Made by a program: the position numbers and the translations under genes. The notes below the pieces were generated by a model. That model did not search any database and was not told the DNA's origin. It saw only the letters and a list, made by a program, of their open reading frames with translations. DNA of 35,985 nucleotides from a virus (taxonomy: Duplodnaviria > Caudoviricetes): the IMG/VR virus record IMGVR_UViG_3300033067_000400, positions 1 through 35,985 of that record. One strand, written 5' to 3'. Positions 2,777-20,185 of the stretch are shown here, piece after piece. Every line of letters starts with the position of its first letter. Position 1 is the stretch's first letter.

Positions 2777-2797
2777 TTTGTCAAACGCAGAAGGCTC

Positions 2798-2851
2798 GTG
2801 CATCATGCACACAGCAGCGCGGGGCGTTATAGCAGCTGGTGCACGATGCAC
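2798..2851. promoter_or_regulatory. Two GTGCA-N3-TGCAC palindromes (putative operator or accessory sites)
   Basis: GTGCAtcaTGCAC at 2798-2810 and GTGCAcgaTGCAC at 2839-2851, 41 bp apart. Confidence 0.5.
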
Positions 2852-2883
2852 GGGTTAAGTGCCTGACCCAAAAGGGAACAGGC

Positions 2884-2911
2884 ATTTGACCAGTGATAGA
2901 TTATGCGAAGT
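2884..2911 (-). other. dif-like XerC/XerD recombination site (putative attP)
   Basis: Minus strand reads ACTTCGCATAA-TCTATC-ACTGGTCAAAT in 11-6-11 format. Against E. coli dif GGTGCGCATAA-TGTATA-TTATGTTAAAT it matches 8/11, 4/6 and 6/11. It is intergenic and next to a DUF3653 gene. Confidence 0.7.
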
Positions 2912-2957
2912 AGCGCCCCGTGTTGCCTTTATCGTCTGCTAAAGGTAGCCTTGGCAA

Positions 2958-3470
2958 ATGCTAACTCGCGAGATCGAAGACCTCATCGACAAGGCTGGCG
3001 GCGCTGGCTTTGTCATGCAGGCTTTAAACATCCACCGCACAACCCTCATGCGCTGGCGCACGGGCAAGGCGGTACCCAGTCAAGCCACCATCGATCTGCT
3101 GCGCGGGTTCGCAGGCACCAAGTTGCCGTGGGCTGACAAGAGCTGGACGGGCTGGCACTTCGACGGCAAATACCTGCGCGGGGATGAGGGGGAATGCTTC
3201 GAGGCGTGGGAGATGAAGGCGCACTGGATCACGGTCCAGATGGTGCCGATCCTGCAGCGCGAGAACGCCAAGCTGCGCGCGATGGTGGAAGGCCTCGCCA
3301 AGGACGTCAAAACGATCGACACGGCGGCCAATGATCTGACTGCATGGGAGGCAGACCCTCGGGCAATTAAAGCGCCCAGAGAGCCTGCCGTTGCCCCGAG
3401 GCCGGGGCTCAACAAACCCGAGCCCGAGGTTAGGCGAACGGGCGGCCGCCGGGGGTCGTGGAGTCGATGA
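2958..3470 (+). CDS. HTH + DUF3653 protein, XafT-like (putative Xer recombination activation factor)
   Basis: N-terminal HTH (VMQALNIHRTTLMRWRTGKAVP), then W.GW.F.G..L....G..F...E (DUF3653-like) and a coiled coil. Confidence 0.75.
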   Translation: MLTREIEDLIDKAGGAGFVMQALNIHRTTLMRWRTGKAVPSQATIDLLRGFAGTKLPWADKSWTGWHFDGKYLRGDEGECFEAWEMKAHWITVQMVPILQRENAKLRAMVEGLAKDVKTIDTAANDLTAWEADPRAIKAPREPAVAPRPGLNKPEPEVRRTGGRRGSWSR

Positions 3471-11662: not shown

Positions 11663-14600
11663 TTATTCCTTGGGCGCGCCCAGCAGCAGCGCCATTGGGT
11701 TGGACGTCTTGCCCTCGTACATGGCGTTGAACCCCTCCACCGTGCGGTTGACTTGGCCCGCTGGGTAGTGGAAGAGAATGCCCGCCGCGTTGTTGAGGCG
11801 CTTGAGCAACGGCGCGTCGACCTCGCCCTGCTCCACTTGCTTGCCGAGCTTGGCAACTTCACTGAAAAAGCGCGTACCCGCTGGGCCTTCGTAGCCGTAG
11901 AAGCCGTTGATCGACGCGCCCAGTTCGCGCAAGCCAACCATCGTGCCGAGCAGGTAGTTGAGTTGTTCGCGGATGAGCTTCTCGATGAGCTTGTCATCGT
12001 CTTCGCCACCGCCCTTGAGCGCCTCTTTCATCGCGAAGCCAACCACGGCTGGCACCGTGTAGAGCATGAGCATGTCGACCATGAAGCGGCCAACTTGCAG
12101 CGGATCCTTGAAGCTCGTGGCGTTGTAGCGCTCGGCCGTCAGGTTGTAGGTCGTGCTGAAGTACGAGTAGAAGTTGGTGAAGAGCTTTTGCAGTGGGCCG
12201 CCGCGTTGCACGCGAGCGAGGTCCATGATCTGGCCGCCGCCTTGCGCATCGCGCACAGCTTGGTCAGCCTGCGCAATAGCGCCCGCCTCGTCCGCGCCTG
12301 CAGCGATCGACTTCTCGTACTGGCCCAGCCACGTGGGCAAGTCAGCGATCATCTGCGCCTTCTGGATCAGGTAGAAGTAGGTCTCCTTGACGGGGCCTGC
12401 CATCTCGCCTTGCACCTTGTTGCGGATCTCGTTGATCTCGCGCTGCATCGTTTCACCGCGCAGGCGCATGAAGTCAGACTTCGCGTACACCTCCTTGGCG
12501 GTGTTCTCCATGCGGGTCGCGTCGCCAATCCAGCGGGCCAAGCCCTTGCCGACCCACTTCGGCCCGACGCGCACGATGGACTGTGTAAGGCCCAGAGGCT
12601 GCATGAGCGAGGTCATGAGGTTCCAGCCCATGCCAGCGATCGTGGTACCCACGCGCAGGTGGTTGATGGCTGCCTCAAACTCAGACTGCGCAGGCACGTC
12701 ACCCGCAGCGATGTCCTCGAGCGCGCGCTTGAACTCGCGCAGCACTTCGTTGCCAGCGGTCTCGCGGATCGCCGACTCGATAGGGCCTGCGCGCAGGATG
12801 CGCGTGGCGTCGATGAGCCACTCGTGCCATGCCAAGTCGTGGATGACTTGGTCGACGTGTTGGAAGATCACGCCGAGGTCTTTGCGCACAGCGCGGTTGA
12901 CCGTGTCGACACGGCCCTTGGTGTGGCCGCGTCGTGTGGTGGCGCGCGTCATCTGGCCCAGCATCATTTGCTTGGTCAGTTCCGCAGCGGTTTGGCCTTC
13001 GGCCTTGCCAGAGCGGTCTGGGTCGTACTTGATCGGGTAGTAGCCGCCGCGCATTGGCACCACGGTGCCGTCTGCAGTGGTGACCGTGAACGCGCTGGCC
13101 TGCACCTTCTCAGGCGCCAAGCCGCTCACGCGCTCTTCTTTGGCCGAGATCTCAGGCCAGTAGGTGTTGATGTGGTCCCACGCCTTTTGCACGAAGTCGA
13201 GCTGCTCAGGCGTGAGCGTGGACAGGATCGCCTCGACCTGCGCCGAGCTCCACTTGTCGCCGTCCATCACGCGCTGGCGGTTGGCCTCGTTGCCCCAGTT
13301 CAAGGCCACGGCCAAGCGGGTCTCGAGCGAGAGGCTCATGTTGATCGCAGGGATGAACGCCATCGTCTTGAGCTTCTCGCCCTTGATGATGGGCTCGAAG
13401 ATCTTCGACAAGGCCTTGGTGGCCTTCTCGCGCATCACGGCTTCTTTGTCGCCTGCTGCGTTCATCGAGCGGTTGAACACCGTCCAGAACACGCCGCCGT
13501 CCTTCATGCCGTCGAACTGACGGATCAGGCTCGAGAGCTTGCGGTGCGAGCTGAAGAAGCCGCGCACTGCGTCGGTGGCCTTGTCTACCTTGGTGGGCGC
13601 GTTGATGCGCACAGGGCGCTCGCTCGTGGCGTTCTCGCGGATCGATGCCTCGAGGTCGGCGATGACAGCTGCGAATGCGCGCTTGTCCTGCAGCGTGAGC
13701 AGCTTGTCTTTGAGGCGGCCCAAGTGCTCGATGTTGCGCACTGTGTCAACTAAACCACGGAACTCCTCGAGCGTCATGTTCTTGTAAGAAACAAGCTGTA
13801 CGTCTTCGAGCAAGTAGTCGGGGATGTTGGGGTCGAGGCCGAGCTCCTGCTGGGCGGTGATCCACTCGGCGAGCTTGGCTCGCTTGTCGATCTCCTTGAG
13901 CGAGGTGCCACGGTGCAGCTCCACGCGCTCGAGCAGCTTGTCGATCTGAGCCATGTACTCAGGTGGCAGCTTGCTGCGCACGCTGTCCTTGTCGAACTTG
14001 CGCAGGTAGTCGAGCTTCTTGTCCACCTCGGCGAGCGCTTCGGTGGTGTACTTGGCCGCGTAGTGGTTCAAGAGCTGGTCGCGCTTAGCCGTGACCGCGC
14101 CTGTCGTGTCGCCCTCGGCCATCGCGCGCTCTGCCTTGAGCGCAGCGCGCGACTCGGCAGCGGTGTGTGCGCCTGCCTTGAGGTCACGCACTTTGCGTTG
14201 GGCGATCAGATTGCCCGCGAACTCCTTGGCAGCGGCCAACACCGCGTTGATCGTCTGCTTGTACTGCACCTTGGTCGTGGTGCCGTCCTGAGCCGTGCGG
14301 GTCGCGGTGATCGTCTTGCCTGTCTCCACGCGCACGTTCATCGCGTCTTGCAGGGCGCGCAGTTCGCTCGCCACAAAGCGGGCGCGGGCCTCGTTGTGCA
14401 CGGCCTCGTTGGCTGCGCGCTCGATGCCCTTGTCGGTTGCCAGATCGCCGTAGCGCTCGAGCAAGCGTTGGTCGGTCATGCCGTCGATGGTGGTGTCTTC
14501 AGGCATGGCGCCCACGATCGCGCGCACCATCTCGTCGCCGTTGGCAAAGCCGAAGAGCTCGGCCACCATGTTGGGGTGCAGGCCTGTGTCGGCTTCTTTG

Positions 14601-17600
14601 GTCACCATGTTGGTGGCGATGTAGCGCCAAGGGGCTGCAGGGCCTTCGCCGTACATCTCTTTGAGCACAGGCAGGGAGAGCTTGCCGCCCTCAACCTTGT
14701 TGCCCTCGAGCTCGCCGAACTTCAAGAAGCGCTGTACCGCGTACTCGGGCATGGCGCGCACTTCGGCGGTCACCTCTTCTTTGACCACCTTGCGCTTGTC
14801 GTTGATGTCGCGCTGCAGCTTGCTGAGCATCTTGCTGCGGGCGTTGACCACCCACTTCAAGTCACGCAGGCTGCGCGCCTGCAGCTGCTCGATGGCAGCC
14901 TCAGTGCCCTCGGCGCCTTGCTGTTGGTAGTTGACCCATTCCTCATCGGTCATGAAGTCGGGCTTGGTCTTGAACACGGGCGCGAAACCCGCCACGCGCT
15001 CGGCCTCTTTGATCTGCGCGTCGGTCGCCAGCATGCGGTCAAACACGCTGCGCACCTCGTCAGAGAGGTCGTTGTTGTAGCGCGCCATGAAGTCCTTGAG
15101 CGACTTGTAGACGCTGGTCAGGAACTGGCGGAAGCGCTGGAACAGGGGCTTGAGCTCGGCGCTTGGGGCCTTGCCCTCGAAGAGGTATTGCTCGAATGAC
15201 TCGGCAAACTTCTCGTGGTGTGGGCGCTTCTCGTCGAGCGTGTAGCCCATCCACGTCTGCGCGTCGGCAACGCCGAACCACTTGAGCAGCGCGTTCATGT
15301 CCTCGACGACATCCGCTGGCGCGCCCGGCTGGGTCGCGAGGTCGGCCATCACCTCGAGGAAGAAGTGGCCTGTCTCGTGCAGGAACGTAGAGAGATCTGC
15401 GTCTTTGAGCAGATCGATGCGCAGCTGGCTAGGGCTGAAGGTGCCGCGCTTAGGTTGTAAGACGGGCTGGCTTTGGTTGAGGACGTCGCTTTGAGGAGCG
15501 ACACCGAGCGCGCGCTGAACGGCGGCTCGGTCTTCGGGTGTTAATCCGAGGTTTGTGAGCTCGTTGTCGGAGAGGGCGGCAATGCCTTGGACAGTGCCCC
15601 GAGCGCGGGATGCGACAGGTGCTCCAGCACCAGCTCCTTGATCCCCTGCAGCTCCTCCGTTGTCGGCGCTGGCTGCTTCTGCATCCGCTGCGCGAGCAGT
15701 GTCTCGAAGCTCGCGCATTGTTGATCCGTCAGCGCCATCAGCTCGTCCTGCGAGAAGACCTGCGAGGCCGCCTCGGAGATAGCGGTTGATAATGTTTTGT
15801 CGATCGGCATCGGTGCCCTTCCATTTCATGATCACCAATGGCGGGTAGCCATCGGTTTCTGGATTGTACCCGGGGGTACTGTCCTGCCAGAATTTTATAG
15901 CATCTGCTAACTTCTGTGGCGAATAATACTGCGGATCGAAGGGGACTTCGGCCACTTTCTCGAAGCCAAACGCGGCGTACAGCGATGGCAGAAAACCGTC
16001 GGGGTACTTGGCGTTCTTGACCGCGAAGGCGTCCAACACCGTGGCGCCCTCTTGCAGCGCCTTGAGCACGACGGCAGGGCCGCCGATACCACGAGCGCCC
16101 GGCTCGTTGTTGATCACGGAGGTGAGCAGCACCTCGTTGTTGGTGATGCCGGGGGTCTCGATGCCGTAGTCGGCCGCGTAGCCGGGGTCGCCCTTCTTGA
16201 GCGCGAAGAAGATCTGCCCGTCAGCGCCGAGCTGGTAGATCTTCATCGACTTGTCTTTGATCGCCTTCTTGACCTGTGGCAGCGTGTACTCGCTCAGCGC
16301 CACCTTGGCGGGCGAGTTGTCGATCGCGTCGAGGAACTCTTGAGGCGACACGCCGCCTTGCTTCACGGCGTCGTCCGAGGTGCTCCAGTTATCCGCAGCG
16401 AAGTCGGCGGCCAAGCGGGCTTGGCGTGCGCTCTCGATGTTGTCTTGCTTGATCGGACCGATGCGGTCGATCAGATCCTGCGTCACTTTGACGATCGGCT
16501 TGGAGAGCTCGAAGGCGCGGCGTGGGGAGTCCTTGTCGCTGTTCTCAGCGAGCCAGTCCTGCCACAGCAGCTGCCAGTTGATGGCTGCCTCGAGCTTGCC
16601 TACGACCTTGCCGCGCACGCCCACGGGGAAGTCTGGGTGCGCGGTCGTACCTTGCGTGCCGAGCTCGACTTGTGGGCTCTCTTGGTCCACCTCGACCAAC
16701 AGGACGCCGTCGCCCCAACGGTGACCTGCAAGGCTGGGCTCGCGGGTGGCGTCGAGGATTCGGTTCATGGGCGGTGCGCCCAGCTCGAGCGCTTGCTTGG
16801 ACGCCATGATCTCGAGCACGCGCTTGCGTGCGTCAAACGAGATGCCATCCATGTAGGTGTGCATCGTGTCGTGGTCGTCGAAGCCGGGGAAGTAGGTCAG
16901 GTACTCCTTGACCTTGCTGGCCTTGGCGCCTGCGCCTTCCATCTTCTCGCCCGTGGTGCGCACGAGGTCGCCCAGCGCCTTGACGTTCTCAGGGGAGATG
17001 CGGCCATCACGGGCCCACGCCTCGAGCGTAGCCATGAAGGCAGCGGCCACGGTGCTGTTGGACTGGTGCATGTTTGCGTCACCCATCACCACCAGCATGT
17101 AGTTGGCGCCAGCCTTGAGCTTGGCAGCCTTCTGGGCGATCACGCCCTTGCCACGGTTGGCCCACACGATGCCAGCCTGCACGTTGCTCTCGCGCAACGG
17201 GAAGAGCGGGCCGCCCAGCAGCGGGATCGCAACGCTCACGCCCGAGGCGTCGATGCCCGTGTACAGCGCAGCGGCAGCGGTACGGTCGGCGATCGTAGGG
17301 AACACGTCGAAGCCGAGCATGTCCTGCAGCGTGATGATCGGCACGTCCTTGCTGTCGATCAGCTGATCGATCTGCATGACGTCCTGCACTTCGCCGCCCG
17401 CGTCGGTGATCGCCTGCTCGAGGTTCTGCACCTGCTGCGCGTAGCTCTGGTTCATCACATCTGGCCCCATCGTGGGGGCCGTGTTGAACACCGACTTGAC
17501 TTGGTTGGGGTTGTAGATGGCGAGGTTTTTCTTGCGCGCCTCTTTCACGTAGAAGCCGTCAAAGCCTGCTGCCTTGATGGCCGCCTGCGTCGTGGGTTTC

Positions 17601-20185
17601 TCGATCTCTTCCCAGTTGCCTGACTCGAGGTAAGGCTTGGACTTGTCGCCACGCGGCTCGCCCCACGAGTTGGTGTTCTTGTTGAGCTCGGCCACCACGG
17701 CAGCGATGTGCTCGGGGTTGTCGTAGTCGAACGGATTCTGCGCACTGACGTACAGCGGCATGATGTTGGGGCCCGAGGCCATTTGATCGGCCAGTGCCTT
17801 GGTGAACTCGCTACGCACAACGGCGTTGAGCACGGTCTCGCGCATGCGCATGCGGTGCACCAACACGTCGACCTTATCGGGGTCTTCGTTCGCCAACTTC
17901 GAGCGGATACCCGCTTCGGCGTTGTCCAACGCGATGGCGATTTTGTCCTCGGAGAGCAGCTCCTCGTAGTTCTCGACCATCCAGTCTTTGCTCATCTCCG
18001 AGAAGTCCTCGGCAAAGCTCGGGTCTTCGGTCACGAAGATGGCGCCAGCTTGCTTGGCGCGGAACACGGAGATGTCTTGCGCTGTGCCGTGGTACATGCG
18101 CTTGGGCGTGCCGTCGGCATTGGTGATCTGGCTGTTGCCAAACCACGCAGCGAACTCGGGCGTGCCTGTGCGCAGCTGACCTGTCTGGTCATACTGGTCG
18201 TATTGGCCTGCCTCGAGGGACACGCCCTCGGCGCGCACGGTGAGCGGATAACGCTCGTACATCTGCTCAGGCGTCATACCTGTGCGCTCGCTCATCACGG
18301 TGTAGAAGTCGCGCACGAGGCTCGCGTAGCCGTCGTTGACGTCAGCGGTGAAGCGCCCACCAGCGGTGAGTTGCTCGAGCACTTTGCCTTTGACCACCTC
18401 GGCGCTGGCCGCCACAGCAGTAGCGTCGCTGGCCTCGGCCACGACGGTCTTTGCCATCTGTTGCAGGTACTCGCCTGCAAGCTCGCTGGCTTGCTGCGCT
18501 TCGATCTGGCTCAGGCCGTCTTCGGTTGCGCGCAGGTGTGGCAGCAACGCGGTCTCGAGACCCGTGCCAACAACGTGGCCCGTGAACTCGCCGATCGGGA
18601 TAGCGATCGACTCGCCTGCTTCAGAGGCGCGCTGCAGGTTGTCGGCCACGCTGGGCACGCGGCCCATGAACTCGATGACATCGAAGCCAGACTGGTCGAG
18701 GGTCTCCACCAGCGTGCGCGCGTCGATGTAGACCTCGGTGAGCGCACCTTCGGTCTGGTCGGCCACGCTCTGCACGAACTGAGCGAACGTGTCGGGCGCG
18801 CGCTCGCGCAGCTTGGAGGCTGTGGCGAGCTGCACGATCTGGGTGAGCTTGGCGAACTGCTCTTGCGAGTCGCGCACTTTCGCTGCGTCGCTGGTGAGCT
18901 TGCGCGCACCGCTTGTGACAGCAGCCCATGCCACGTCGGTAGGGGCGCCAAAGCCCTCGCCTACGGCCTCGAGGAAGAGCTCAGCGGGGCTTGCTGTCTC
19001 ACCGACAGCGGCAGCAGCTGCAGCAGCGCCTGTGGCGCCTGCGGTGCCTTGCTTGACCACCTCGCCTGCGATGTTGCCGACCTTGCTCGCAAACGATGCG
19101 CCCTTGCCACCGCCGGGCACAGGGATGAATGCGAAGGCTGCGTTGACGCCGCCCTCGGTCAGTGCCTTGGTGCTGGCGTATTCCCACGCAGCCTCGAACG
19201 GCTGGCCTTCGGCAATCTTTTGCGCGATCTCGCCCGCGAGCGTTGGGCCGTAGTTGCCCGTGAAGTTGACGCCTGCCATCGTGGTGGCGCCAGCGATGTA
19301 CTGGGCGAACTTCTGGCTTGCGATGCGTGTGGCGATCGCGTCGCCCACAGCGCCACCTGCTACGCCACCGATCGGTGCGAAGGGCGCGGCCTGCACGCCC
19401 ATCTCGATCATGAAGTTGACGGCGGCATCGGGGTTGCGCACGATGTAGCCCAACGCGTCGATCGCGCCGTTGACGCCCTTGTCGTTGTTGTAGGCCTGCT
19501 CGTAGATCTTGCCTGCGATGTCGAGGCGCTTGTCACGTGGCAGGGACGCGTAGAGGTTCGCCACGTCGGTGAGCGAGCTCTTGGCGGTTTGGTTGGATGC
19601 GTCCACAGGCCCGCTTGGGGCAAGCCCCATCGGACCCTTCTTTGGCTCAGGCAGGAACGTGGTGCCGATGGATGTCAGCAGCTCGTCGACCTTGAGCGCG
19701 GCGGCATCGCCAAACACGCCCAGCGCGGTGATGCCGCGCTTGAACGCAGCGCCCATCGAGTCGTCTTGCTTGCCGGGCATGCGCTGCACAGCAAGCGCTT
19801 GGTCGGCCTTCTTCGAGAAGTCGAGGCCGCGCTCCCAGCTTGCGAGGTTGCCTGTGTCATCCTTACTCAGGTTGAACAGGTCGGTGTTCTTGACGAGCTC
19901 AGCGGCAGCCTTCGGCGAAAGCTGCTCGAGCGTTGACCAGTCGGGCTCATTTGCCAGATCCGCTGCCTTCGCGGGGTTGTTCTGCACCGTGGGCATGGGC
20001 AGCCCCGTAGTGCGTGACAGCTTGCGCGCGTTGGCGAAGTCGTCAGGCTTTACCGTCTGCTGACGGTAGAGGGAACGTAGGGTGTCGGCATTCGTATCTG
20101 GCAAAAAATCCAGAGAGGAACCAACATTCTCACGCGCTACACCACTAGGAGTTGCAGACTTATCGGGAAGGTTGTTGAGATCCAT
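11663..20185 (-). CDS. Giant internal virion/ejection protein of polyvalent type (ART-like, GNAT-like and HExxH zincin-like domains)
   Basis: 2840 aa at the gp16-equivalent position. Motifs: FAAWFGNS...MYHGT...IFVT...MPLYV...GFDGF (ART-PolyVal-like); LDAF...FLPSLYAAFGF (GNAT-like); ADLSTFLHETGH...HEKFA (zincin-like). Confidence 0.8.
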   Translation of the reverse strand: MDLNNLPDKSATPSGVARENVGSSLDFLPDTNADTLRSLYRQQTVKPDDFANARKLSRTTGLPMPTVQNNPAKAADLANEPDWSTLEQLSPKAAAELVKNTDLFNLSKDDTGNLASWERGLDFSKKADQALAVQRMPGKQDDSMGAAFKRGITALGVFGDAAALKVDELLTSIGTTFLPEPKKGPMGLAPSGPVDASNQTAKSSLTDVANLYASLPRDKRLDIAGKIYEQAYNNDKGVNGAIDALGYIVRNPDAAVNFMIEMGVQAAPFAPIGGVAGGAVGDAIATRIASQKFAQYIAGATTMAGVNFTGNYGPTLAGEIAQKIAEGQPFEAAWEYASTKALTEGGVNAAFAFIPVPGGGKGASFASKVGNIAGEVVKQGTAGATGAAAAAAAVGETASPAELFLEAVGEGFGAPTDVAWAAVTSGARKLTSDAAKVRDSQEQFAKLTQIVQLATASKLRERAPDTFAQFVQSVADQTEGALTEVYIDARTLVETLDQSGFDVIEFMGRVPSVADNLQRASEAGESIAIPIGEFTGHVVGTGLETALLPHLRATEDGLSQIEAQQASELAGEYLQQMAKTVVAEASDATAVAASAEVVKGKVLEQLTAGGRFTADVNDGYASLVRDFYTVMSERTGMTPEQMYERYPLTVRAEGVSLEAGQYDQYDQTGQLRTGTPEFAAWFGNSQITNADGTPKRMYHGTAQDISVFRAKQAGAIFVTEDPSFAEDFSEMSKDWMVENYEELLSEDKIAIALDNAEAGIRSKLANEDPDKVDVLVHRMRMRETVLNAVVRSEFTKALADQMASGPNIMPLYVSAQNPFDYDNPEHIAAVVAELNKNTNSWGEPRGDKSKPYLESGNWEEIEKPTTQAAIKAAGFDGFYVKEARKKNLAIYNPNQVKSVFNTAPTMGPDVMNQSYAQQVQNLEQAITDAGGEVQDVMQIDQLIDSKDVPIITLQDMLGFDVFPTIADRTAAAALYTGIDASGVSVAIPLLGGPLFPLRESNVQAGIVWANRGKGVIAQKAAKLKAGANYMLVVMGDANMHQSNSTVAAAFMATLEAWARDGRISPENVKALGDLVRTTGEKMEGAGAKASKVKEYLTYFPGFDDHDTMHTYMDGISFDARKRVLEIMASKQALELGAPPMNRILDATREPSLAGHRWGDGVLLVEVDQESPQVELGTQGTTAHPDFPVGVRGKVVGKLEAAINWQLLWQDWLAENSDKDSPRRAFELSKPIVKVTQDLIDRIGPIKQDNIESARQARLAADFAADNWSTSDDAVKQGGVSPQEFLDAIDNSPAKVALSEYTLPQVKKAIKDKSMKIYQLGADGQIFFALKKGDPGYAADYGIETPGITNNEVLLTSVINNEPGARGIGGPAVVLKALQEGATVLDAFAVKNAKYPDGFLPSLYAAFGFEKVAEVPFDPQYYSPQKLADAIKFWQDSTPGYNPETDGYPPLVIMKWKGTDADRQNIINRYLRGGLAGLLAGRADGADGSTMRELRDTARAADAEAASADNGGAAGDQGAGAGAPVASRARGTVQGIAALSDNELTNLGLTPEDRAAVQRALGVAPQSDVLNQSQPVLQPKRGTFSPSQLRIDLLKDADLSTFLHETGHFFLEVMADLATQPGAPADVVEDMNALLKWFGVADAQTWMGYTLDEKRPHHEKFAESFEQYLFEGKAPSAELKPLFQRFRQFLTSVYKSLKDFMARYNNDLSDEVRSVFDRMLATDAQIKEAERVAGFAPVFKTKPDFMTDEEWVNYQQQGAEGTEAAIEQLQARSLRDLKWVVNARSKMLSKLQRDINDKRKVVKEEVTAEVRAMPEYAVQRFLKFGELEGNKVEGGKLSLPVLKEMYGEGPAAPWRYIATNMVTKEADTGLHPNMVAELFGFANGDEMVRAIVGAMPEDTTIDGMTDQRLLERYGDLATDKGIERAANEAVHNEARARFVASELRALQDAMNVRVETGKTITATRTAQDGTTTKVQYKQTINAVLAAAKEFAGNLIAQRKVRDLKAGAHTAAESRAALKAERAMAEGDTTGAVTAKRDQLLNHYAAKYTTEALAEVDKKLDYLRKFDKDSVRSKLPPEYMAQIDKLLERVELHRGTSLKEIDKRAKLAEWITAQQELGLDPNIPDYLLEDVQLVSYKNMTLEEFRGLVDTVRNIEHLGRLKDKLLTLQDKRAFAAVIADLEASIRENATSERPVRINAPTKVDKATDAVRGFFSSHRKLSSLIRQFDGMKDGGVFWTVFNRSMNAAGDKEAVMREKATKALSKIFEPIIKGEKLKTMAFIPAINMSLSLETRLAVALNWGNEANRQRVMDGDKWSSAQVEAILSTLTPEQLDFVQKAWDHINTYWPEISAKEERVSGLAPEKVQASAFTVTTADGTVVPMRGGYYPIKYDPDRSGKAEGQTAAELTKQMMLGQMTRATTRRGHTKGRVDTVNRAVRKDLGVIFQHVDQVIHDLAWHEWLIDATRILRAGPIESAIRETAGNEVLREFKRALEDIAAGDVPAQSEFEAAINHLRVGTTIAGMGWNLMTSLMQPLGLTQSIVRVGPKWVGKGLARWIGDATRMENTAKEVYAKSDFMRLRGETMQREINEIRNKVQGEMAGPVKETYFYLIQKAQMIADLPTWLGQYEKSIAAGADEAGAIAQADQAVRDAQGGGQIMDLARVQRGGPLQKLFTNFYSYFSTTYNLTAERYNATSFKDPLQVGRFMVDMLMLYTVPAVVGFAMKEALKGGGEDDDKLIEKLIREQLNYLLGTMVGLRELGASINGFYGYEGPAGTRFFSEVAKLGKQVEQGEVDAPLLKRLNNAAGILFHYPAGQVNRTVEGFNAMYEGKTSNPMALLLGAPKE

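Follow-up and report, generated by a model that had tools for sequence, protein, structure and literature searches.

A dif-like site beside a XafT-like gene in a tailed phage, with predicted plus-strand helices kept in many relatives

Genome setting and the XafT-like gene

The stretch of DNA analysed here, referred to as the window, comprises positions 1 to 35,985 of IMG/VR virus record IMGVR_UViG_3300033067_000400. Terminase, head-tail adaptor, major head protein and primase-helicase genes identify the record, which is 82% complete, as that of a tailed phage. The region of interest is a gap of 181 bp that separates the replication operon, which encodes an SNF2 helicase, a DUF3310 protein and a DksA-like zinc finger, from a 170-aa gene at 2958. 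The last gene of the operon (2591-2776, + strand) is assigned as a small zinc-finger (DksA/TraR-like) protein by a 72% DNA match to annotated DksA-like phage genes. Beyond the 170-aa gene, lysis and virion genes converge on the opposite strand. In related podoviruses, the integrase and attP occupy this position. Elsewhere in the window, positions 11663-20185 encode a 2840-aa virion-module protein with apparent inserted domains, and the replication operon of a complete relative encodes an Acb2/Tad1-like anti-defence protein (L229:8861-9115).

The 170-aa gene (2958-3470, + strand) had been called XafT-like in the original prediction, and the call was borne out by the family profile, a match to PM2 P15 and the modelled architecture. 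On its own, the protein falls below the DUF3653 cut-off (E 0.0098), and a single-protein search returned no viral loci and only two close proteins. A family alignment of 40 members was built from this protein and 39 of 73 protein matches; 32 of the 40 match PF12375 (DUF3653) at E<=0.01, 14 match an HTH family, and the family profile aligns with PM2 P15 (hhalign, 97%). The structure model contains an HTH, a DUF3653-like beta-hairpin and a long helix, which as modelled is the XafT architecture. A structure search returned only uncharacterised phage proteins and HTH repressors, and no annotated phage or plasmid relative was found other than PM2 P15, weakly. XafT promotes both integration and excision, and the accessible part of the report on it leaves open how direction is set, suggesting XafT levels and the DNA around attP (PMC6744903).

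The dif-like site

A dif-like site, which the original prediction had placed within the bracketing structure, was confirmed on the - strand at 2884-2911. It has a good XerC arm (2901-2911), a centre (2895-2900) and a degenerate XerD arm (2884-2894), and is double-stranded and intact, of the TLC type. A canonical dif pattern allowing 3 mismatches gave no match because the XerD arm is degenerate. XafT-driven integration follows a rule of G at the fifth or T at the first innermost XerD-arm position, as worded in the accessible part of the source (PMC9226527). Here the first position is A and the fifth is G; a G at position 5 is found in 52 of the 53 related loci assembled below and in 25 of 26 distinct arms, and was not part of the search pattern for these loci.

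Five of 401 bacterial genomes have a dif that matches five of the six centre bases, and none of the 401 has the exact centre. Two close variants, X7 and X8 (depth under 5), differ in the centre at 2895-2898, and X8 (depth 3) has exactly the centre of those bacterial dif sites; these sequence differences hint at tuning to different hosts. A tyrosine integrase (PF00589) was found in none of five relatives, four of them complete, and a resolvase-type recombinase (PF00239) in none of five records, this one among them. Among 185,579 species genomes there was no integrated copy with this architecture, and the 14 matches were all from Psychrobacter with another spacing. A bacterial homolog of the XafT-like gene is present in 11 of 400 scored genomes. 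In nine of these 11, a near-canonical dif lies within 1.5 kb of the homolog, and in seven the gene follows the XerC arm, as here (positions derived from tables). We conclude that the site is very probably an attP used by Xer.

Small XafT-like elements of 0.8-1.8 kb are integrated at bacterial dif sites (L200, L204, L205, L207, L212 and L223, with a tandem arrangement in G170), and the box described below is not present in bacterial XafT-like elements. On three contigs of about 11 kb (L056, L058 and L085), XafT-like genes adjoin a P2-type replication nickase gene, with tail or lysis genes in two; their att regions are variant, and L058 has two XerC arms 34 bp apart.

Related loci and spacing of the boxes

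Upstream of the site lie two copies of the palindrome GTGCA-N3-TGCAC, the only exact copies in 36 kb. Box 1 (2798-2810), likely a protein site, is 86 bp before the XerD arm. Box 2 (2839-2851) is an inverted copy at +41, perfect here and degenerate in most relatives.

Relatives were collected in two ways. The protein-selected set contains 40 viral loci, 33 of them full-length and some of them duplicates. A dif-like site lies upstream in 26 of the full-length loci, and in 23 the box is found 84-87 bp ahead of the XerD arm (a count that leaves out L067, which also has the box); all 23 carry G5 and the TTG of the promoter predicted below. The pattern-selected set contains 107 matches in three collections, obtained with box spacings of 73-101 bp allowed; the box is at 84-87 bp in all 50 viral matches. 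Together with earlier loci these give 81 distinct rows, 57 of them at 84-87 bp, and 53 remained after four near-duplicates were dropped. The 24 rows that differ in spacing were left out (12 at 97 bp, the Psychrobacter type, five at 75 bp and seven others), and the one Psychrobacter genome tested has no XafT-like gene. The loci are related to one another, and p values given below are optimistic for that reason.

Two other patterns were discarded. One built on the XerD arm of this phage gave 12 matches, of which L044 was true and 11 were unrelated, and a two-box pattern gave 42 matches with a dif-like site in L041 and L006 only. L006 and L044 share the two boxes and their spacing, along with a 9/11 inverted XerC-arm copy, and are without a XafT-like gene after the site. 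Longer TTGTGCA-N3-TGCACAA arrays occur on unrelated viral contigs (L004, L018, L020 and L027) with no nearby dif-like site.

The rigid 84-87 bp spacing resembles DNA phasing, and boxes 1 and 2 are four helical turns apart. The spacing speaks for a DNA accessory region, in which boxes and operators bind proteins that control the promoter P1 and support Xer synapsis on a poor XerD arm, as at cer, and in which the folds are mostly by-products of inverted protein sites. We regard this as rather unlikely as the main role of the region; the XafT of TLC requires no flanking DNA, according to the accessible part of its description (PMC6744903), and further evidence on both sides is given below.

Predicted promoters and operators

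A sigma-70 promoter, P1, is predicted on the + strand at 2778-2806, with a -35 element TTGTCA (2778-2783), a 17-bp spacer and a -10 element CATCAT (2801-2806). A TTG lies 17-18 bp before the -10 element in 52 of the 53 pattern-selected loci and in all 23 protein-selected box-bearing loci, and the spacer is unconserved. The search pattern held the A and T of the -10 hexamer and not the TTG. Judged from this sequence conservation, P1 is very likely a real promoter. Its -10 element falls within box 1, which puts the predicted RNA start at ~2813. No U-tract terminator was seen between the zinc-finger gene and P1. An antisense promoter in box 2 was considered and rejected, as by-eye inspection found no conserved -35.

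A second promoter, P2, is predicted at 2923-2951 (+ strand; TTGCCT, 17 bp, TAGCCT) and ends 6 nt before the ATG of the XafT-like gene, a leaderless geometry. The lambda cI mRNA is a precedent for a leaderless repressor-type message. A P2-type promoter ends 6-7 nt before the ATG in all 16 rows with the gene directly after the site, 15 of them with TTGAC; the scan was limited to 5-10 nt upstream, so that the distance from P2 to the ATG is partly built in. The original prediction had suggested that the XafT-like gene has the structured region as its leader. With a leaderless promoter predicted for the gene itself, this role survives only as a second route, by read-through.

Operator-like palindromes of the form TAGCA-N2-TGCTA overlie P2 and the gene start at 2930-2941 (two mismatches) and 2952-2963 (one mismatch), and recur at early promoters of complete relatives. 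There they overlap the -10 element of several early promoters (G001:2844, 3994 and 8655; G002:26445 and 27014; G003; G005). Sequence matches of this kind suggest a multi-operator regulon, and with palindromes over both P2 and the early promoters, a phage repressor likely controls both. The XafT-like protein was dropped as sole repressor; complete relatives have other weak HTH matches, some near early operators, and none of these relatives has an S24 domain. Recurrence of the palindrome at early promoters, together with its place at the core of two hairpins described below, is a further point in favour of a DNA accessory region.

Stems at the locus

The original prediction described a pseudoknot-like structure on the + strand, and a base-by-base check found each of its stems. 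Stem 1 pairs 2797-2810 with 2839-2852 at 13 of 14 positions, with a G-T extension to 2793/2856. The long stem pairs 2814-2830 with 2910-2926 at all 17 positions, four of them G-T; the predicted start (~2813) is its first base, so its 5' strand makes up the first bases of the predicted transcript. A hairpin at 2857-2865/2879-2887 has a CCC-AAAA-GGG tip and extends to 2853/2891, and its 3' arm covers the outer XerD arm (XerD-arm hairpin, 2853-2891, + strand). The reading of the deviations as + strand wobbles was correct for the four G-T pairs of the long stem but not for the stem 1 mismatch, A2805-C2844, which wobbles on the minus strand. The arms of stem 1 are the two boxes, and cross-pairing is therefore built in, as expected of two copies of one palindrome.

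Folding of 2780-2940 as RNA gave z -6.05 for the + strand and -5.93 for the - strand, and as DNA -3.36 and -3.97, with none of 200 shuffles as good in any case. The minus strand fold uses stem 1 and the plus strand fold uses the other two stems; stem 1 is absent from the + strand minimum-energy fold of the full region, computed with a program that cannot draw pseudoknots. From the predicted start, the + strand folds at -64.4 kcal/mol against -43.1 kcal/mol for the - strand (z -8.5 versus -3.6). Among 896 segments of 120 nt, 2813-2932 folds most strongly (z -8.0, next -5.7) on a grid deliberately set to begin at 2813. A scan against Rfam, covering the region and eight related loci, gave no match at the gathering score.

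We consider it very unlikely that the folding strand is DNA, either single-stranded during replication or transcription or extruded as a hairpin, and serving as a CTXphi-like substrate or hiding the XerD arm to time recombination. DNA folding gives the + strand no advantage here, and the double-stranded site is intact, of the TLC type. The best inverted copy of the XerC arm matches at 5 of 11 positions here and at most at 8 of 11 in 23 of 25 rows, and terminase, portal and capsid genes mark the genome as that of a tailed phage. The folded substrate reminiscent of CTXphi that had been suggested for the region thus finds no counterpart at this locus. On the other side are the 9/11 inverted XerC-arm copies of L006 and L057 and the pairing of the XerD arm and the boxes in relatives, described in the following section.

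Conservation of the fold in relatives

From the predicted start, the + strand is the more stable in 46 of the 53 loci, with a mean z of -3.0 against -2.0 for the - strand. Strand-blind scoring of internal mismatches counted 20 G-T against 6 A-C (p 0.009; shuffles 157:172). Most relatives form three hairpins, the second and third with several two-sided changes. The second has a C-rich loop able to pair with a G-run just past the XerC arm, which gives a true pseudoknot around the site. The three family helices are 75.7% paired, against 37-48% in slid controls, with two-sided changes in 19 of 21 pairs. The XerD arm pairs with its own upstream DNA in 49 of 59 loci (p 1e-4 over 19 lineages), an observation that a folded DNA strand would also account for. 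The G-T excess and the compensated helices uphold the original prediction of selection on a + strand fold. A fixed-register count of G-T against A-C on the XerD-arm hairpin is weak (38 versus 28) because registers shift. Two of the family hairpins fall on the operator palindromes, and RNA is thus not required for part of the pairing. RNAalifold found no fold common to all 53 loci, which agrees with a DNA accessory region. Such a region does not account for the two-sided changes that compensate one another in the bracket helix and in the outer arms of the hairpins, nor for the one-strand G-T excess. On balance, the selected single strand is probably RNA.

The prediction that a helix brackets the dif-like site was likewise supported, by alignment of relatives. 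The bracket helix pairs 2849-2854 (CACGGG here, a C-run in most relatives) with 2917-2922 (CCCGTG here, a G-run in most relatives), the latter being the core of the long stem 3' strand at 2910-2926. In this phage it is paired at six of six positions in register with G-C swapped to C-G. L060 pairs five of six with its own letters, L146 has a T-A swap at one pair, and L111 is paired once shifted by one base. Roughly one in three distinct rows is unpaired in this register, with L129, L131, L195, L059 and L067 among several that use another 5' partner. Lineage permutation gave p 0.002-0.003 with this window and 0.034-0.045 without it. Among six held-out loci, L059 and L067 alone clearly beat the non-cognate mean, and L061 was worse. 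Stem changes in close variants at 2885, 2913 and 2915 all weaken helices and are uncompensated (two at depth <5), and the bracket core is untouched by them.

The pairing at the two ends also bears on a possible small RNA. A discrete ~115-nt RNA from P1 might terminate just past the bracket helix and work in trans, in the manner of Rcd of ColE1 cer, to signal that the phage has not integrated, with the DUF3653 domain as a possible partner. The two ends of the predicted RNA pair in this phage and in L129, L059, L060 and L067, a weak terminator-like site was called at 2910-2926, and the G-run is followed by a T-run in many relatives. Binding of a DNA hairpin by a DUF3653 protein, through a motif resembling the WTGWHF of the protein encoded here, is described in the accessible part of one study (10.1101/2024.03.19.585677). 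With a poor T-tail here, no Rfam match, and sequence and fold more variable than is usual for a trans-acting RNA, this reading is quite unlikely.

The long stem behaves differently from the bracket helix. Over the 53 relatives 44.7% of its cells are paired, a value inside the slid-control range of 32-52%, and in two close variants it is weakened at positions other than the conserved core. Judged by these alignments, the 17-bp stem is lineage-specific. Here the fold with the long stem gains 21 kcal/mol over one with the family helix, and this lineage thus seems, from its sequence, to have gained a stronger bracket.

Stem 1 lies in part upstream of the predicted start, which excludes its 5' arm from a P1 transcript. 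Its columns are 70% paired, against 22-50% in slid controls, and the centres of boxes 1 and 2 covary as inverted copies (37 of 69 versus 25 expected, p 0.0007), with one pair retained in 52 of 53. As box 1 is upstream of the predicted start, this covariation is a point for a folded DNA strand. In a nascent read-through RNA, stem 1 forms first, with probability 1.0 here and >0.5 in 18 of 59 loci. In full-length folds it persists in seven of 59 loci, not including this one. We read stem 1 best as an alternative helix in read-through RNA or as two co-evolving protein sites.

These results do not sustain the specific pseudoknot first proposed, in which stem 1 and the 17-bp stem form together in read-through mRNA of the replication operon and gate the XafT-like gene. 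The two stems do use different bases, no U-tract terminator was seen ahead of the region, and both the nascent folding and the column pairing of stem 1 agree with such a structure. The long stem is not conserved, stem 1 is lost from most full-length folds and its palindrome copies cross-pair by construction; from topology, 17 bp wound inside a closed 28-nt loop would need threading. We judge this pseudoknot highly improbable. What the relatives keep is the spacing of the box from the site, the hairpin over the XerD arm, the bracket helix and the + strand G-T excess.

Cassettes inserted at the site

Two or three sites are present in 16 rows, of which 15 are phage relatives, some of them the same phage. 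In 15 of the 16, one-gene inserts of 0.4-1.4 kb lie between direct repeats of the centre and XerC arm. Seven of 15 cassette ORFs have Pfam matches: four DNA methyltransferases, two Mom proteins and one exonuclease. The commonest cassette end carries a box of its own and a hairpin, C-rich in its loop, that covers the XerD arm; a G-run stands at the cassette start, so that each of the two junctions regains a bracket. At cassette ends the box is retained, at 124 or 135 bp, and has no obvious -35, which again favours a DNA accessory region. The cassettes are the best indirect sign that Xer acts on the site.

Arrays of one or two cassettes were recorded at L063:2075-2770, L065:1506-2782, L073:2232-2923, L078:1139-2783 and L112:1586-2908, and further arrays in L144, L149, L156, L158, L163, L193 and L139. 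Most have a conserved att end of ~135 bp and an extra XerD-like half-site right after the box.

Interpretation

The site, the boxes, their fixed spacing, the compensated + strand helices, the inserted cassettes and the lack of an integrase gene in four complete relatives are direct observations; transcription, read-through, integration and XerD activation we infer. Our leading reading, a tentative one, is that the region is the attP of a tailed phage that borrows host XerC/XerD, and that it is crossed by a predicted transcript whose fold could form only before integration.

As long as the phage DNA is free, P1 would fire from ~2813. The RNA would form a hairpin over the XerD arm and a helix that closes on the far side of the XerC arm, and would continue into the XafT-like gene or the first inserted cassette, its folded 5' region protecting or gating the RNA. 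A burst of activator could follow infection. After a crossover in the centre, one end of the prophage would carry P1 with the 5' strands, and the opposite end would have the gene together with P2 and the 3' strand. With only the operator-controlled, leaderless P2 left, the activator would drop, the reversible reaction would be biased against excision and the prophage would be stable. The geometry of an integration-state switch, proposed in the original prediction, is supported in that recombination would split the predicted fold and P1 from the gene; that such a switch is the job of the fold is a possibility we put forward with some reserve.

A broader version is more speculative and, in our estimation, not likely. 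It supposes that a pseudoknotted RNA across a Xer attP senses integration and thereby determines how much XerD activator is made, and that the DUF3653 domain of this activator perhaps binds the RNA; that the same promoter is an integron-like driver of anti-restriction cassettes stacked by Xer, comparable to an integron cassette promoter; and that these phages form a family of integrase-less tailed phages.

Comparison with known systems

The closest parallel is attP and XafT of TLCphi from Vibrio cholerae, as far as the accessible parts of two reports describe them (PMC6744903; PMC9226527). Shared with it are a double-stranded site with a good XerC arm, a host-like centre and a degenerate XerD arm with G5, and an adjoining HTH and DUF3653-like gene. 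The locus differs in belonging to a tailed phage of ~44 kb, where TLC is a small satellite, in having no partner repressor gene beside the site, and in what lies on its XerD side, namely a conserved predicted promoter, boxes and helices with compensated changes; TLC has no need of flanking DNA there. By sequence, the locus has the site architecture, G5 and adjoining XafT/DUF3653 gene of a TLC-type IMEX. The RstR/P16-XafT/P15-attP module of CTX-I inoviruses and PM2-like phages shares the protein family and variable cargo near xafT. Here the cargo consists of cassettes bounded by site repeats, and no attP-crossing transcript is described for that module in the accessible part of the paper (PMC12715192).

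ColE1 cer, with Pcer and Rcd, resembles the locus in having a promoter in the flank of a Xer site and a short structured RNA tied to recombination state, both promoter and RNA being predictions here. In the accessible parts of the sources, cer resolves plasmid dimers with ArgR and PepA (PMC4393325; PMC5357621), whereas the site here is likely an attP, its flank is on the XerD side, and its predicted RNA crosses the crossover point and has no Rfam match. The folded attP of CTXphi likewise encloses a dif-like site in a one-strand fold of ~120-150 nt, judging by the part of the paper that is accessible (PMC5357621); it differs from the locus, which has no usable inverted XerC arm, a complete duplex site and a tailed-phage genome. 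Lacking both the inverted XerC arm and a filamentous genome, this is not a CTX-type folded site.

Control coupled to integration is likewise known from lambda sib retroregulation, which concerns the phage integrase and decay of int mRNA. In the integration-dependent immunity of mycobacteriophage BPs, recombination at attP similarly splits one transcription unit and reports integration. BPs uses a phage integrase and acts on a repressor tag, as accessible in the source (PMC9262239), in contrast to the host Xer, predicted promoter and RNA fold here.

Two reports, in the parts accessible, treat non-tailed elements (10.64898/2026.06.12.731946; PMC12715192). A search of literature mostly outside subscription journals yielded no paper on a tailed phage with XafT, on transcription across the attP of a Xer-dependent element, or on cassettes inserted there; the supplements of PMC6744903 may list tailed prophages. 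The predicted promoter and fold are new parts of this XafT/dif module. They offer a concrete candidate answer to the question of XafT direction, a promoter and RNA fold that would be cut apart by recombination, and the locus would extend Xer hijacking to common freshwater tailed phages, in which the same site appears to be an entry point for anti-restriction genes.
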